Of a stretch of 64,000 nucleotides of DNA, positions 56,862-62,416 are shown one piece after another. The notes beneath the pieces are model-generated. The model saw only the letters and a list, made by a program, of their open reading frames with translations. It was not told the origin of the DNA and did no database searches. The stretch is from the sequence record OL780484.1; one strand, 5' to 3'. This DNA is from Escherichia phage vB_EcoM-E33. Position 1 is the stretch's first letter, and the number at the start of each line of letters is the position of its first letter. A program made the translations under genes and the position numbers.

Positions 56862-57533
56862 ATGGATACTCAATATATTGAAGAGCTTCGTGCACTCGAA
56901 GATAAAAAAGAAGCTAAAGCTAAGTTAATCGAATACGGCGAACAGTTTGGTTTAAAACTTAAGAAAACCCGTTCGTTTGATAATTTGATTATCGATATCT
57001 CTGAAGGCCTTAAAGCCTTGGCTGACGAACCACTTCCGGAAACCGAAGGGTTGTCCATTTCTGATTTGATTGATGCTGCTGATGAACTCACTGGTGATAA
57101 AGATTTTATCGAAGGTGTAGAACCAGCTAAAGAAGAAGCAACCCTGTTGTTCGATGCCCCTGAGGCTGCAGTAGAAGTCGTTGAGGTAGCCGAACTTCCT
57201 AAGGTAGAGATTATCGAAGAGGATGTTCCATTTGACGAAGAGAAATTCAAAGGGGCTATAGCCAAGGTTGTTGAATCTGAAAAACCTGTATTCTCTTTAC
57301 CTGAAAACTTCAGTCCTAATCTTTTGCTTATCGGTAAGAACCCAGGTTATTGCACCGTTCCTTGGTGGATTTACCAATGGATTTCTGAGACTCCGGATTG
57401 GAAAGAACGTCCAACTGCTTTCCAACATCCTTCTGCCCACCAAACATTATTTAGTCTGATTTATTACATTAATCGTAATGGTTCAGTATTAGTACGTGAA
57501 ACTCGTAACTCATCTTTTGTCACTTTAAAATAA
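56862..57533 (+). CDS. inh: Inh-like protein (inhibitor of prohead protease), by position and size
   Basis: 223 aa; synteny uvsW-inh-hoc. Confidence 0.5.
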   Translation: MDTQYIEELRALEDKKEAKAKLIEYGEQFGLKLKKTRSFDNLIIDISEGLKALADEPLPETEGLSISDLIDAADELTGDKDFIEGVEPAKEEATLLFDAPEAAVEVVEVAELPKVEIIEEDVPFDEEKFKGAIAKVVESEKPVFSLPENFSPNLLLIGKNPGYCTVPWWIYQWISETPDWKERPTAFQHPSAHQTLFSLIYYINRNGSVLVRETRNSSFVTLK

Positions 57534-57542
57534 GGGTTTATT

Positions 57543-58391
57543 ATGGCTTATACCGTAGATATGGCTCCTTTGGCGGCTACGGCCGTTATTGGAGCAACAA
57601 CCAATTTCACTGCGACCGGTTCCGGTGCTGCAGCTGAAGGTACCGAATCATTTGTCTGGACCGTTGATGGCGTTCCTCAATCTTCTGTGACTGCTGCAAT
57701 GGATTATGTTGCTGTTGGCCCGGCAGGCAGCAAGACTATTAAAGTTGTTGCAACAACTACACCGGCGGACGGCGAACCAGAAACAGCTGAAGCCGAAACA
57801 ACTTTAACTATCCAGAATAAAACCATTTCCGGTGTTTCTGTGACATTAACCCCAGCTTCGATTAATGTTCCGGAAGGCACTCCAGCTTCTTTTAAAGCGG
57901 ATGTGGTCGGCGCTCCTGCCGGCGCTACTTTTGCCTATTCTTGGAAGAAAGACGGTTCTCCTGCAGTTGGCACCACGGATACTCTAGCAATCGACACAAG
58001 CACTGAAGGTTCACAGGTTATTGAAGTTTCTGTTGTGGTTTCGGCGACTGATTATGACCCTGCGACTGTCACAAAAACCGGTAATGTAACAGTCACGGCT
58101 GAAGTCGCACCAGTTCCGGATGGTGAACTACCTTACGTTCATCCGCTGCCGGTACGTAATTCGGCTTATATTTGGTGCGGTTGGTGGGTTATGGACGAAA
58201 TTCAGAAAATGACTCTTGCTGGTCAAGACTGGAAAACAGATAACCCAGATAGCCCGTATTATTTGCACCGATACACACTTCAAAAAATGATTACCGACTA
58301 TCCAGAGGTTGATGTACAAGAATCTCGTAATGGTCGAATTATTCATCGCACCGCTTTAGAAGCTGGTATTATATACGATTACGTTTACTAA
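57543..58391 (+). CDS. hoc: Hoc outer capsid decoration protein, short form
   Basis: 282 aa; C-terminus LPYVHPLP, AYIWCGWWVMDEIQKMT, DWKTD-PDS-YYLHRYTLQKM, YPEVDVQESRNG matches the remembered T4 Hoc capsid-binding domain. Confidence 0.85.
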   Translation: MAYTVDMAPLAATAVIGATTNFTATGSGAAAEGTESFVWTVDGVPQSSVTAAMDYVAVGPAGSKTIKVVATTTPADGEPETAEAETTLTIQNKTISGVSVTLTPASINVPEGTPASFKADVVGAPAGATFAYSWKKDGSPAVGTTDTLAIDTSTEGSQVIEVSVVVSATDYDPATVTKTGNVTVTAEVAPVPDGELPYVHPLPVRNSAYIWCGWWVMDEIQKMTLAGQDWKTDNPDSPYYLHRYTLQKMITDYPEVDVQESRNGRIIHRTALEAGIIYDYVY

Positions 58392-58395
58392 TTAT

Positions 58396-58415
58396 GGGCC
58401 GCAAGGCCCATTTTG
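58396..58415 (+). terminator. intrinsic terminator after hoc (gggcc-GCAA-ggccc plus ATTTTG)
   Basis: hairpin plus short T-run. Confidence 0.5.
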
Positions 58416-58435
58416 CATTAAAGTACAAAATTCCT

Positions 58436-58465
58436 GTTTACAAGTTAAAAATTCTATGTTAAGAT
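58436..58465 (+). promoter_or_regulatory. T4-type early promoter (GTTTACA, 17 nt, TAAGAT)
   Basis: motif read from sequence. Confidence 0.4.
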
Positions 58466-58494
58466 GGGTTTACCAACTCAACGAGAGAATTGAT

Positions 58495-58704
58495 ATGGAT
58501 AAGGTTAAAGTACATTTTTTACACGAATCTGGGTTGAATTTTATAGAAATTGCTAAAAAAATGGGCGGGACCGCTAAGGATATGGCCAAAGCATGGGTTG
58601 ATGTAGAACAAGCCAAGGCCAAATTTAAAGCGAAAGAAAAGGTTGTTTATCGTAAAAGATTGAACAACAAGGTTCGGCGCAAAGCGCGTTCTGGTTCAAA
58701 GTAA
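58495..58704 (+). CDS. small protein, about 69 aa, with a possible HTH and a basic C-tail
   Basis: internal ATG of ORF 58456..58704; ESGLNFIEIAKKMGGTAKDMAKAW then RKRLNNKVRRKARSGSK. Confidence 0.45.
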   Translation: MDKVKVHFLHESGLNFIEIAKKMGGTAKDMAKAWVDVEQAKAKFKAKEKVVYRKRLNNKVRRKARSGSK

Positions 58705-58732
58705 TATGCTTTAAATTTAGGTGTGATATAAT
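58705..58732 (+). promoter_or_regulatory. MotA-type middle promoter upstream of rnlB (TGCTTTA, 13 nt, TATAAT)
   Basis: motifs read from sequence. Confidence 0.45.
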
Positions 58733-58818
58733 GGGTCTAGGTCCTTCCGTTAAACCATTTGGCTTGGTGACAGAAGACTACTAGCTCTTCTATTTAATTA
58801 TATTTATTATGGTGATTT

Positions 58819-59826
58819 ATGTTCAAGAAATATAGCAGTCTCGAAAACCACTACAACAGTAAGTTTATCGAAAAACTCCGTACTAACGGTTTGACTGGTG
58901 GTGAATGGGTAGCACGTGAGAAGATTCATGGAACCAACTTTAGTTTAATCATAGAACGTGACGCAGTCACATGCGCCAAGCGCACTGGCCCTATCCTCCC
59001 TGCTGAAGATTTCTATGGTTATGAAATTGTACTTAAGAACTATGCTGATTCTATTAAATCTGTTCAACATCTAATCGAATCGATTAATTACCAGTCATAT
59101 CAGATTTACGGCGAATTCGCTGGGACAGGTATCCAGAAGAATGTGGACTACGGCGATAAAGACTTTTATGTGTTCGATATCCGAGTTACTAAAGAAGATG
59201 GCTCAGAATCTGTTCTAACCGATACATTGATGGAAGCCTTCTGTATTATCCATAAGTTTAAGGTAGCTCCATGTCTGGCCACTGGTAGCTTTGAAGACCT
59301 TATTAAACTTCCTAATGATTTTGATTCAGTTGTTCCTGATTATAATTTTGCAGTGGATAACGCAGGCTTAACTATTGCAAACTCAACCGATTTTATTCCT
59401 AAGGTAGAAGGTAAGGTATTCACGGCTGAAGGCTTTGTATTGAAACCTGATGTTCCTACCTGGCTTCCAAACGGAAATCGTGTGGCGATTAAATGTAAGA
59501 ACTCTAAATTCAGCGAGAAGAAAAAGTCTGATAAGCCTATTAAAGTTGCAGTGGTATTGTCCCAAGACGATATGGATTTGATGTGGCAATTCACCGATTA
59601 TGTGACTGTTAACCGCATTAACAATGTCATCAGTAAGATTGGCGAAGTATCGCCGAAGGATTTCGGAAAGGTGATGGGCTTGACAGTCCAGGATATCCTT
59701 GAAGAAGCCGCCCGTGAAGAATTGGAATTAACTGATGCGGAAAATCCCGTTGAAGTTAAAAAGCAGCTCGTTGAGTGCGTAAAAGAAACATTAAGACATG
59801 TATGGATTGAACTAGTATCCAAATAA
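58819..59826 (+). CDS. rnlB: RNA ligase 2
   Basis: 335 aa; very high similarity to remembered T4 Rnl2 ([58 protein letters not shown]). Confidence 0.95.
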
Positions 59827-59834
59827 ACGATAAA

Positions 59835-59860
59835 GGGACCTTACGGTCCCTTTTATTTTT
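59835..59860. terminator. bidirectional terminator between convergent rnlB and gene 24 copy A (gggacc-UUAC-ggtccc, T-runs on both sides)
   Basis: hairpin with flanking T/A runs. Confidence 0.55.
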
Positions 59861-61133
59861 CTAAAGGCGGTAATTTTACGCCGAGATAAGAACTCAATTG
59901 ACTTTGATTAGCCATTTTGTCCATATCAGAACCATCAATAATGCGGGCTTCTTTATCGTCCTTAGCGACGGTATAAGGGTTTGCAGTCAATGCATAACGA
60001 GCAAGCAATGCTACTGTAGGTTGTAAGCTTTCCGGGTCAACAATAACCTTAAATTCACCAACTGAAGTATCACCTTCTTCGTCAACCACATTCAAACCTT
60101 CCGTATAAGGCGCATAATATAAAGATGCGACCGTCTGTCCTTCACCCATCTGGGCATTTACACCAACAATAACATAATCACATGGACTATTCATATCAGC
60201 ATAAAGTGGTAGGCCATTCTTTAATATACCATAAGCCAATTCGTCCTGGTCTTCCTTTTTCTCAACCCAACCAGAGGCGGCGAGAATAGCAGCACAACGA
60301 GAACTAGCTACTGCATAAGTCCCGGCAAAAGAAGTCTGTCGTTGGACGGCAGAGTTCATCTCACACATATAATAATATAATGTGCGAGCACGGTCCTGGG
60401 CATTATCGTAGCGAGGGTTGGTAAGGTCTAATACACCCTTTTCAGAAACACCCCGGACTTTAAAACGAGAGCTCACGGTAATTAATGACTGTAATACATC
60501 CTTATTAATTTCTTCTGCCATTTGAATGCCTAGCAGATTTTCAACGAAATTAGGAGCATTAAACCCGTTAGATTCTAGGTCTTGGGCTAATTCGACTGTC
60601 AATGAAGTTTTCAGTTTACGTGATTTAACTTCAGATTGCCATTTGTCGATACGGAATCCGGTTTCAGCAATTTCAGGATGGCCTTGTTCAAATTTAGAAG
60701 TAATAGCAGCATCCGACACCATACGGATATGGCCGGCTGCCACTGCTTCAGAAATAACTTCGCTGAGGTTGGTTTCTGTGGTTCCGGCGAAAGGAGATGC
60801 TTCTAGAACTTTAAACACTACGCTTTCAAACTGGAACATATCACCGACCGCATAAGCTGTAGATGAATCAGTAAATTCTGGAATATTTTCACGTTCCGTC
60901 ATACCAATCTGGCCCGCAAATGTTGCTCCACCAAGATAAGTCATTTTGTCGTCAGGATTCAGTACACGTACCCCATACAGAGCAGCAACCGGTTGATTTG
61001 TTTTTTGTTCAGCAACTAGGGCTTTAAAGATTCGTTTATTAGTTGCTTGGGTGTATGAAAGAAGAGCAGGACGGCCAACCGAGCTGGCAGCCGTCAATGT
61101 GGATTCTTTAATTAGGTCTACAATCTTAGACAT
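59853..61133 (-). CDS. gp24-like head vertex protein, paralog A (426 aa)
   Basis: about 55-60 percent identical by eye to the adjacent gp24; shared blocks RKLKT-LTVELAQD-ESNGF-AP-F, EINKDVLQSLITVS, ANPYTVAKDDKEAR. Confidence 0.75.
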   Translation of the reverse strand: MSKIVDLIKESTLTAASSVGRPALLSYTQATNKRIFKALVAEQKTNQPVAALYGVRVLNPDDKMTYLGGATFAGQIGMTERENIPEFTDSSTAYAVGDMFQFESVVFKVLEASPFAGTTETNLSEVISEAVAAGHIRMVSDAAITSKFEQGHPEIAETGFRIDKWQSEVKSRKLKTSLTVELAQDLESNGFNAPNFVENLLGIQMAEEINKDVLQSLITVSSRFKVRGVSEKGVLDLTNPRYDNAQDRARTLYYYMCEMNSAVQRQTSFAGTYAVASSRCAAILAASGWVEKKEDQDELAYGILKNGLPLYADMNSPCDYVIVGVNAQMGEGQTVASLYYAPYTEGLNVVDEEGDTSVGEFKVIVDPESLQPTVALLARYALTANPYTVAKDDKEARIIDGSDMDKMANQSQLSSYLGVKLPPLEK

Positions 61134-62416
61134 TAATCAGCCTCGTAAATAATTGCCGGAAGTTTAACGCCAACCAGATAAGACATATTGCTCTGTCCAG
61201 CCATTAAATCCATATTGGTTGCATCGATAACACGAGCTTCTTTATCGTCTTTAGCCACGGTGTACGGGTTAGCTGATAGTGCATAACGAACCATCAGAGA
61301 AATAGAAGGTTGTAATGAATCCGGGTCAACAATAACCTTATAAGCACCGACGTGTTCTTGGTCATCTAAATCTAAGCCTTCGGTATAGGGAGCGTAGAAA
61401 ATAGAACCGACAACTTCATTACCGCCGTAATTCTCTTTAACACCAACGGTAACATAATCTAATGGACTGTTAACGTCACAAAACAGAGGCAGACCATTCA
61501 ACAAATATCCGTATGCAGTTTCCGGAAGCCAATTATTATCTTCGGGTTTATGTTTTAACCAGCCAGAACCTGCAAGCATTGCAGCCACACGACTTGAAGC
61601 CACAACAAACGTGCCAGAATAAGAAGTAGTTTTCTGGATTTCAGAATTCATCTCACAAACGAGTTCATAAAGTTTACGTGCAGATTCAGGAGCACTGTCA
61701 TAAGACAAATCGATGATGCCGTTATCAGATACACCAGTAACTTTATAACGTTTGGATACGGTTATTAGAGATTGCAGAACGTCTTTATTAATTTCATCTG
61801 CCATTACTGTAGCCAAGAGGTCTTCTAAGAACGCCGGCGCGTCAAAGCCATTTGATTCCATATCCTGCGCTAATTCTACAGTCAAAGCCGTCTTCAATTT
61901 ACGGGTCTTAACCGGAGCATTCCATTTATTAACCTGGAATACAGCATCAGAGATTTCTACATCACTCGCTTCAAATTTAGTGGTATGGGCAGCATCAGGA
62001 ACCAGACGACATGTTAATGACACTAAACCTTCTTGAAGAGCATCAGCCAATTCTGTGGCGCTAGTGGACGCGAGTGGGCTTGCTTTAAGAGCCTTATAAA
62101 CCACATTCTGGTACTTGAAATATTCACCCTGAGCAATCGCCTGGGCCTTATCTGTGAGTTCTGGGATAGTTTCACGGTCTTTAGAACCAACTTCACCACC
62201 ATAAGAGGCACCTGTCTGGAAACTAAATTCATTATCAGGGGTAAGATATTTGACACCATACAGTGCAGCAATAGGCTGGCTAGTACGTTGTTCGGCGATA
62301 ATATCACGGTAAATCAATTTGGTTGTAGCACGGGTCAAAGCAACAAGATTAGGGCGACCCAATGAGTTGCTGGAAGTAGTTGTTGACTCGCGCAGTAATT
62401 CGTTAATCTTTGCCAT
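61133..62416 (-). CDS. 24: gp24 head vertex protein (427 aa), closest to T4 gp24
   Basis: N-terminus MAKINELLRESTTT-SNS-GRPNLVALTRATTKLIY and long collinear similarity to remembered T4 gp24. Confidence 0.9.
   Translation of the reverse strand: MAKINELLRESTTTSSNSLGRPNLVALTRATTKLIYRDIIAEQRTSQPIAALYGVKYLTPDNEFSFQTGASYGGEVGSKDRETIPELTDKAQAIAQGEYFKYQNVVYKALKASPLASTSATELADALQEGLVSLTCRLVPDAAHTTKFEASDVEISDAVFQVNKWNAPVKTRKLKTALTVELAQDMESNGFDAPAFLEDLLATVMADEINKDVLQSLITVSKRYKVTGVSDNGIIDLSYDSAPESARKLYELVCEMNSEIQKTTSYSGTFVVASSRVAAMLAGSGWLKHKPEDNNWLPETAYGYLLNGLPLFCDVNSPLDYVTVGVKENYGGNEVVGSIFYAPYTEGLDLDDQEHVGAYKVIVDPDSLQPSISLMVRYALSANPYTVAKDDKEARVIDATNMDLMAGQSNMSYLVGVKLPAIIYEAD

Follow-up and report, generated by a model that had tools for sequence, protein, structure and literature searches.

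The conserved T4 gene 24.3 (DUF2774) ortholog between hoc and rnlB of a JS98-like phage: a predicted minimal winged helix-turn-helix protein

What might be the function of a very small and very basic protein that T4-like phages keep between the hoc and rnlB genes, and is the helix-turn-helix (HTH) that can be read in its sequence the part by which it acts? The question arose in a window of 64,000 nucleotides, the whole stretch of DNA that we analysed, from a JS98-like T4-type phage (Dhakavirus). The local gene order in the window is uvsW (minus strand), inh, hoc, a 69-residue ORF, rnlB and gene 24 (minus strand), and over bases 57500–59900 the identity to phages LQ5, PSD2002, WG01 and Bp7 is 98%, that to JS98 93%. 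The ORF lies on the plus strand at 58495..58704, stop codon included, and its translation, MDKVKVHFLHESGLNFIEIAKKMGGTAKDMAKAWVDVEQAKAKFKAKEKVVYRKRLNNKVRRKARSGSK, is a protein of 7.9 kDa with a pI of 10.5. The original prediction had described an ORF of about this size as a helix-turn-helix followed by a lysine- and arginine-rich tail, a possible small DNA- or RNA-binding regulator, without recognising it as a member of a known family; the peptide that it quoted corresponds to residues 11–34 of the protein.

The ORF is a real gene and a syntenic ortholog of T4 gene 24.3. This identification draws on the ORF list, Pfam, PHROG, tblastn and the comparison with relatives. The protein matched the Pfam family PF11242 (DUF2774) with an E-value of 5.3e-30 and a score of 103.8 bits, where the gathering cutoff is 29.2, and residues 1–61 aligned to positions 1–62 of the 63-position model; it also matched PHROG 1566, a group of unknown function, at 3.5e-31, while NCBIfam held no model matching it. 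T4 gp24.3 (NP_049792, UniProt P39492) belongs to the same family by the curated threshold, is encoded at the same position and on the same strand between hoc and rnlB, and shares with the 69-residue protein both an hESGxxFxEIA motif and an EKVVYRKR motif, the identity between the T4-group protein and ours being ~50%. The order hoc, 24.3, (24.2), rnlB is common to T4, JS98, PEi20, UFV01, Roth80, SP18 and QL01, and in TG1 the order of 24.3 and rnlB is the same and hoc is missing there. Neither tblastn nor the family HMM found a second copy of the gene in the window. The family has been catalogued already as a conserved hypothetical (T4 24.3, DUF2774, PHROG 1566), known but uncharacterised: the JS98 copy is annotated as 'RB69 gp24.3-like', database copies that are 100% identical to the 69-residue protein carry a hypothetical-protein annotation, and our literature search found no experimental or functional paper on 24.3 or DUF2774 and no mention of either in a main text.

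Conservation of the ORF in relatives, the absence of which had been named as grounds for discarding the prediction, turned out to be strong. A tblastn search identified a 24.3 homolog in 1,031 phage records, nearly always at one place per record, most of them T4-like phages with hosts in Escherichia, Klebsiella, Shigella, Enterobacter, Yersinia, Salmonella, Citrobacter and Proteus, and a divergent branch of the family is present in Aeromonas T4-like phages. The traits found family-wide in DUF2774 proteins, E-[KR]-[VI]-V-Y-R-K-R and the core residues G13, F16, I19 and A20, are all present in the 69-residue protein. Comparison of the gene with its orthologs in IME341 and SP18 gave a dN/dS of 0.17–0.24 at a pS of ~0.6, and on this sequence comparison the gene is under purifying selection. 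The program-made ORF list had included an 82-residue form beginning at an ATG at 58456, which we rejected in favour of the 69-residue form, since that ATG lies inside the spacer of a promoter and other genera do not conserve the 13 additional residues. One relative, P0079, sits on a 261-kb contig composed of scrambled T4-like gene fragments, where the surroundings of the gene are uninformative.

The transcription signals around the gene follow a T4 pattern. An intrinsic terminator hairpin lies after hoc (58394..58411, plus strand), with a 7-bp stem, a GCAA loop and a following TTTTG; its RNA folds at −13.2 kcal/mol (z = −2.4), and a GC-rich tetraloop hairpin occurs at the equivalent post-hoc position in JS98, PEi20, UFV01, Roth80 and T4, with the corresponding hairpin of TG1, where no hoc is annotated, coming after inh. 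Directly downstream, a sigma-70 scan located a T4-type early promoter at 58436..58465 (plus strand) with GTTTACA as its −35 element, a 17-nt spacer and a TG-extended TAAGAT as its −10 element, the whole reading GTTTACA-N-TGTTAAGAT. In the window GTTTAC-N14-16-TGNTANNNT is matched 14 times, with every match on the plus strand, where shuffling predicts 0.2, and the element is kept in the four relatives JS98, QL01, IME341 and SP18 despite differing flanks; IME341, for example, has ~300 nt of unrelated sequence inserted upstream of it. A Shine-Dalgarno-like GAGAG at 58483..58487 (plus strand), 7 nt before the ATG, was read from the sequence and is also kept in JS98, QL01 and IME341. As far as sequence patterns can tell, transcription of the 24.3 ortholog from an early promoter of its own, directly after the hoc terminator, fits the T4 arrangement.

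A second promoter follows the gene. Pattern matching placed a MotA-box middle promoter for rnlB at 58707..58732 (plus strand), consisting of TGCTTTA, 13 nt and TATAAT; the general form TGCTTYA-N11-13-TANNNT has 7 matches in the window where 1.8 are expected, and the site is kept in JS98, QL01 and IME341, the SP18 equivalent lying before rnlB and after its gene 24.2. Since both calls concern enriched, conserved T4 consensus patterns, the promoters proposed in the original prediction are sound, with one correction: the middle promoter had been said to overlap the 3′ end of the ORF, and it abuts the coding sequence instead, because its core box begins 3 nt past the stop codon (58702–58704). JS98-like phages, unlike T4, have no gene 24.2, so that the ORF is followed directly by this promoter and a 114-nt leader before rnlB (RNA ligase 2; 58819..59826, plus strand), which concerns us here as a neighbour only. 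The leader folded no better than its shuffles (z = +0.49), and no Rfam family matched the region 58300–58900 at an E-value of 1 or less.

The frequent proximity of 24.3 and rnlB raises the prospect that the protein is an RNA-binding partner of RnlB, one with an affinity for broken or structured RNA that would help RnlB (together with 24.2, where present) in RNA repair. Gene 24.3 precedes rnlB in the same orientation in Tequatrovirus, Dhakavirus, Gaprivervirus, Karamvirus, Kanagawavirus and Tegunavirus, and it does so too in T4-like phages of Klebsiella and in one Bragavirus of Proteus; the protein is, moreover, very basic. However, rnlB is driven from its own middle promoter, which puts the two genes in separate timing classes, and the interval between hoc and 24 is a hyperplastic region in which adjacency carries little weight. 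The two genes also part company: Aeromonas phage 44RR2.8t has a DUF2774 gene (2.5e-30) and no rnlB in its hoc–24 interval, and RnlB itself is found in 1,375 phage records that include 71 Acinetobacter and 55 Vibrio phages, whereas neither Acinetobacter nor Vibrio is among the ten organisms named for the 24.3 matches. As, in addition, the neighbours of the predicted fold (see below) are binders of double-stranded DNA, we regard a partnership with RnlB as distinctly improbable.

Roughly half of the T4 genes, 24.3 included, are without a function. Data on the T4 gene itself come from the supplements to two published studies. In the first of these T4 24.3 is classed as 'early-RNA_middle-Protein', with an early RNA and a protein detected by mass spectrometry (PMC9697503), and this early class agrees with the early promoter of the gene in our window. 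In the second, which also assigns the T4 gene to PHROG 1566, CRISPRi-ART knockdown of 24.3 was scored 'Not Fit' (−0.52, p = 0.86; PMC11879866), a score which indicates that the gene is dispensable in T4 under laboratory conditions and which leaves the family with no knockdown phenotype by which its function could be anchored.

An early gene that can be dispensed with in a defence-poor laboratory host has a profile typical of anti-defence genes, and the orthologs of Klebsiella phages Roth77 and Roth80 are labelled in GenBank as 'anti-TA protein alt3', so that we considered whether the family might be an anti-defence factor related to T4 Alt.-3, blocking a host toxin-antitoxin defence such as CmdTAC. 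A comparison by hhalign of T4 Alt.-3 (96 residues) with the 24.3 family gave a probability of 0.3% over 10 aligned columns, and CmdTAC is not inhibited by wild-type Alt.-3, inhibition being a property of C-terminally extended mutants (PMC11618068). Given that there is no similarity to Alt.-3 and that wild-type Alt.-3 is not inhibitory, the label is almost certainly a mis-annotation, and we rejected this identity for the Roth77 and Roth80 orthologs, which have no homology to T4 Alt.-3. We found nothing specific in support of a more generic anti-defence role, and consider a relationship of this kind to Alt.-3 very improbable.

The HTH itself proved difficult to secure by sequence. Among the curated HTH families the 69-residue protein passed no threshold, and a Pfam search at E ≤ 10 returned DUF2774 alone. 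Below threshold, HTH families did recur among 64 family members (HTH_micro in 14, HTH_7 in 12, HTH_Tnp_4 in 11, HTH_38 in 7, and GerE and Sigma70_r4_2 in 4 each), the best such match in any member being to HTH_micro at 1.9e-4. A search of 1.84 billion representative sequences with a 24.3 profile identified 106 matches, ~40 of which were small DUF2774 proteins; most of the others were long proteins, each matched in 3–9 stretches, and the five of these that we scanned consisted of 5–8 tandem HTH_Tnp_1, HTH_28, HTH_23, CENP-B_N or Sigma70_r4_2 repeats. The part of the 24.3 profile that matched these tandem-HTH proteins was positions ~6–43. Against the sequences of solved structures the profile gave weak matches to region 4 of RpoE (E = 0.011) and to the HTH of IstA (E = 0.08), and otherwise matched only designed helical-repeat proteins.

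Structure prediction pointed in the same direction, and the other ground named for discarding the prediction, failure to predict an HTH fold, does not hold either. An AlphaFold2 model of the 69-residue protein, built on an alignment of 64 sequences, had a mean pLDDT of 81.7 and three helices, H1 (residues 2–11), H2 (16–23) and H3 (27–46), with pLDDT values of 87–94 over residues 1–50 and a coil and tail of lower confidence beyond. The predicted tri-helical HTH-like domain, for which the model, Foldseek and the profile matches all argue, is encoded at 58498..58632 (plus strand). The model of a Klebsiella-phage ortholog, P0022, was better still (pLDDT 90.2) and showed the same three helices followed by a hairpin (strands 49–51 and 54–56) and a C-terminal helix (61–73); the hairpin has pLDDT values of 76–86 in this model, while the same residues are coil at ~66 in the model of the 69-residue protein.

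Foldseek searches of the PDB with the two models yielded no statistically significant match (best E-values of 0.2–1.2, all above 0.1), as is to be expected for a domain of 45 residues, and the matches do not amount to proof. Essentially all of the top neighbours of both models, in the PDB and in BFVD, were HTH or winged-HTH DNA-binding domains. For the 69-residue model these included an archaeal transcription factor (rmsd 0.7 Å over 43 residues), the LuxR-type proteins RcsB, TraR and DosR, the HTH of the IstA transposase, the DNA-binding domain of DnaA and Tn3 resolvase, with local superpositions on HTH domains at rmsd values of 0.6–1.0 Å over 32–43 residues; for the P0022 model they were MntR, MepR and ZitR (MarR type), LysR-type DNA-binding domains, DeoR and LexA. 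Among viral models 24.3 family members ranked first, followed by a psq-type HTH protein of Aeromonas phage Aeh1 and Hin-like HTHs, and further neighbours were GcrA, IS150 InsJ-like HTHs and sigma-70 region 4 proteins. The best reading of these models is that the protein is a minimal winged HTH with the order H1-H2-H3-wing(-H4).

Comparison with known HTH proteins brought out both the likeness and its limits. With the simple tri-helical domains (the resolvase/Hin HTH_7, HTH_23/HTH_28/psq, LuxR/GerE and sigma-70 region 4 types) the family shares the pattern 'G-x-s-x-x-E-I-A-k-x-l-g-i-s' over helix 2 and the turn, but its putative recognition helix has A-K-E-A-A-K-x-W in place of the usual S/T-V-x-R, and nothing in these domains corresponds to the family's conserved basic C-terminal hairpin. 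The LysR, DtxR/MntR and MarR winged HTHs, which were the top PDB neighbours of the ortholog model, match that model in the order H1, H2, turn, H3, beta-hairpin wing and H4. Scores against them were not significant, however (E = 0.2–1.4), and the rmsd over full-length alignments was high; in addition, the 24.3 family has no effector or dimerisation domain, its predicted helix 3, at 20 residues, is longer than usual and without conserved DNA-reading residues, and the 69-residue protein has no H4.

The strongest conservation in the family lies outside the HTH. In the alignment of 64 sequences the least variable columns by entropy were E48, K/R49, V/I50, V51, Y52, R53, K54, R55 and L/M56, with R55 invariant, Y52, R53 and K54 conserved in at least 97% and V51 in at least 94% of the sequences. 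This motif, E-K-V-V-Y-R-K-R-L (residues 48–56, 58636..58662, plus strand), would on the ortholog model form a basic beta-hairpin 'wing', and it persists in the most divergent relatives, from Aeromonas phages and metagenomes, as REPVVYRKR, KDPVVYRKR or RVVYRKR. The basic tail of the original prediction thus has to be divided in two: there are indeed 11 lysines and arginines in the final 23 residues (tail pI 11.9), but the beginning of this segment is the conserved motif and predicted hairpin, and what follows (residues 57–69, 58663..58701, plus strand) is a variable lysine- and arginine-rich tail. Every family member is basic beyond the motif, though the tail itself varies, and in orthologs from Klebsiella, Enterobacter and Edwardsiella phages an amphipathic helix with the pattern H-x-K-L-V-x-x-M-R takes its place.

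Conservation within the HTH part is of another kind. Its core comprises E11, G13, F16, I19, A20, G24, W34, V37 and A40, and the conserved positions of helix 3 are either hydrophobic (A31, W34, V37, A40) or acidic (E29, E38), with a variable solvent face; across the 64 sequences no polar or basic residue that could contact DNA is conserved in the putative recognition helix. Judged from the alignment this pattern is atypical of a sequence-specific HTH, and a helix 3 that keeps no reading residues points to low sequence specificity, to lineage-specific targets or to a protein-binding role. The reading of the ORF as an HTH with a basic tail is therefore partly supported, being broadly upheld by the predicted fold of both the protein and its ortholog, if not by any curated threshold or significant structural match, and refined to an HTH with an invariant basic hairpin. 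That the predicted functional surface would be this Y-R-K-R hairpin and not the 'recognition' helix gives a concrete structural hypothesis for a widely conserved early ORF.

Taking these observations together, we put forward, at about an even chance of being right, a minimal winged-HTH protein acting as a non-essential early accessory factor that probably binds double-stranded nucleic acid, likely DNA. The model would comprise a three-helix HTH, a short beta-hairpin with Y-R-K-R at its tip and a lysine- and arginine-rich tail; double-stranded nucleic acid, probably DNA, would be bound directly, the invariant basic wing and the tail making most of the conserved contacts and helix 3 lying in or along a groove; and the protein might thereby serve an early accessory role, e.g., in modulating transcription or host DNA during takeover. 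The identity of the gene, its conservation and purifying selection, the promoter matches and the predicted fold were computed here, and the RNA, protein and knockdown data are those of the T4 papers; from these we infer the binding of nucleic acid, its target and the biological role. The role of a small DNA- or RNA-binding regulator, as first suggested, is likewise one that we infer. A point against the winged-HTH model is that T4 DNA carries glucosyl-hydroxymethylcytosine in its major groove, which disfavours the reading of phage DNA by a classical HTH.

The same features can be read in terms of protein binding. Many small T4 early proteins, AsiA, Alc and Arn among them, work by binding host proteins, and with this precedent the 24.3 protein might be an adaptor in which an HTH-like scaffold, perhaps imitating sigma-70 region 4 or a LuxR-type domain, supports the VVYRKR strand as it docks to a host or phage protein, adding to a beta-sheet or entering an acidic groove of its partner and redirecting or inhibiting it early in infection; RNA polymerase, a sigma or anti-sigma factor, a nuclease or a chaperone would be examples of such partners. 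Conservation does peak in a short linear segment and not in helix 3, whose conserved residues include acidic ones and none for contact with DNA; the best sequence match to a natural protein in the PDB is that to sigma factor region 4 (RpoE), with GerE and Sigma70_r4_2 among the sub-threshold families; and the homolog in 44RR2.8t adjoins a gene annotated as 'decoy of host sigma70', which is a matter of adjacency alone. On the other hand, a strong positive charge combined with an HTH-and-wing topology is the classic signature of nucleic-acid binding, an adaptor has no known partner here, and the similarity to sigma region 4 is weak and common to many generic HTH families. We therefore hold the adaptor to be unlikely, while giving it some weight beside the winged-HTH, nucleic-acid-binding factor described above.

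A more far-reaching proposal, and one that we think quite unlikely, joins elements of both. The gp24.3/DUF2774 proteins might be no conventional DNA-reading HTHs at all, but host-takeover or counter-defence factors in which a scaffold resembling sigma region 4 or LuxR carries the invariant basic VVYRKR hairpin, and which would either tell unmodified host DNA from glucosyl-hydroxymethylcytosine phage DNA through contacts with the minor groove or the backbone, or attach themselves to RNA polymerase or to an immunity protein of the host. If this were true, the family would be a class of small T4 early effectors not recognised before, conserved among the T4-like phages of enterobacteria and Aeromonas.

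The gene in our window is in itself ordinary, an annotated conserved hypothetical within a standard T4 architecture of early and middle promoters, and for its family the analysis clears away the database labels 'anti-TA protein alt3' and 'DNA primase-helicase subunit', both of them misleading. It also suggests that the reference entry for the T4 protein is too short by 11 residues.

When we compared the T4 reference genome with that of a resequenced T4 clone, T4_7t1 (NC_000866 versus OL964745.1), the two copies of gene 24.3 were found to differ in length: the reference gene (NC_000866 109915-110085, corresponding to L002:2416-2586 of our T4 comparison locus, on its minus strand) encodes 56 aa, and that of T4_7t1 (L014:145-348) encodes 67 aa. 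The reference copy lacks 33 bp, consisting of CTCGAG plus 27 bp, and this segment is flanked by two XhoI sites (CTCGAG). It looks as though either a small XhoI fragment was lost when the genome was first sequenced from clones, or a deletion occurred between the 6-bp repeats. The long form is also present in other Tequatrovirus records and in P0070, a cluster with 94 member sequences; therefore, the T4 reference entry UniProt P39492 ("6.6 kDa") is probably 11 residues too short, the residues absent from it probably being the C-terminal half of the predicted helix 3.

Some orthologs of the 58495..58704 ORF also appear in public records under misleading product names. Those of Klebsiella phages Roth77 and Roth80 (L003:2501-2728 in the latter) are labelled "anti-TA protein alt3", and these orthologs have no homology to T4 Alt.-3; those of Yersinia phage vB_YenM_P8, Enterobacter phage fGh-Ecl04 and Klebsiella phage KPP95 (the last being Q0MUT0, family member P0011) are labelled "DNA primase-helicase subunit".

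Gene 24.2 is absent from the JS98-like phages; in T4, SP18, PEi20 and others, it or other small ORFs are located between 24.3 and rnlB. In the window, the 24.3 ORF and rnlB are separated by only a 114-nt non-coding leader (58705-58818), which starts with GGGTCTAGGTCC directly 3' of the middle promoter, is near-identical among the window, JS98, QL01 and IME341, and gave no significant structure in a fold test.

Phage IME341 differs from the window by two insertions (L011:1663-2082 and L011:2296-2779), which show how plastic the hoc-24 interval is. One insertion (~300 nt) sits after the hoc terminator and before the 24.3 promoter, and contains a second terminator-like hairpin as well as a small hydrophobic ORF; the other (~370 nt), with one annotated ORF of 54 aa, separates rnlB from a duplicated rnlB leader/start region. 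Aeromonas phage 44RR2.8t (L010:3359-3883) has no rnlB in the interval between hoc and gene 24; its DUF2774 homolog, the 102 aa ORF167c, sits there within a block of small early ORFs. The block also contains an HD protein of the (p)ppGpp-hydrolase-like type, together with a gene carrying the annotation "decoy of host sigma70".

The T4 early-promoter pattern GTTTAC-N14-16-TGNTANNNT matched at 14 sites in the window, versus 0.2 expected; all 14 are on the plus strand, between positions 526 and 62488, and they offer a ready-made map of the window's early transcription units. The head-vertex gene 24 is also present twice in the window, in tandem on the minus strand (59853-61133 and 61133-62416), and the products, of 426 and 427 aa, are 55% identical; in JS98 the two copies are annotated as 24b and 24a.
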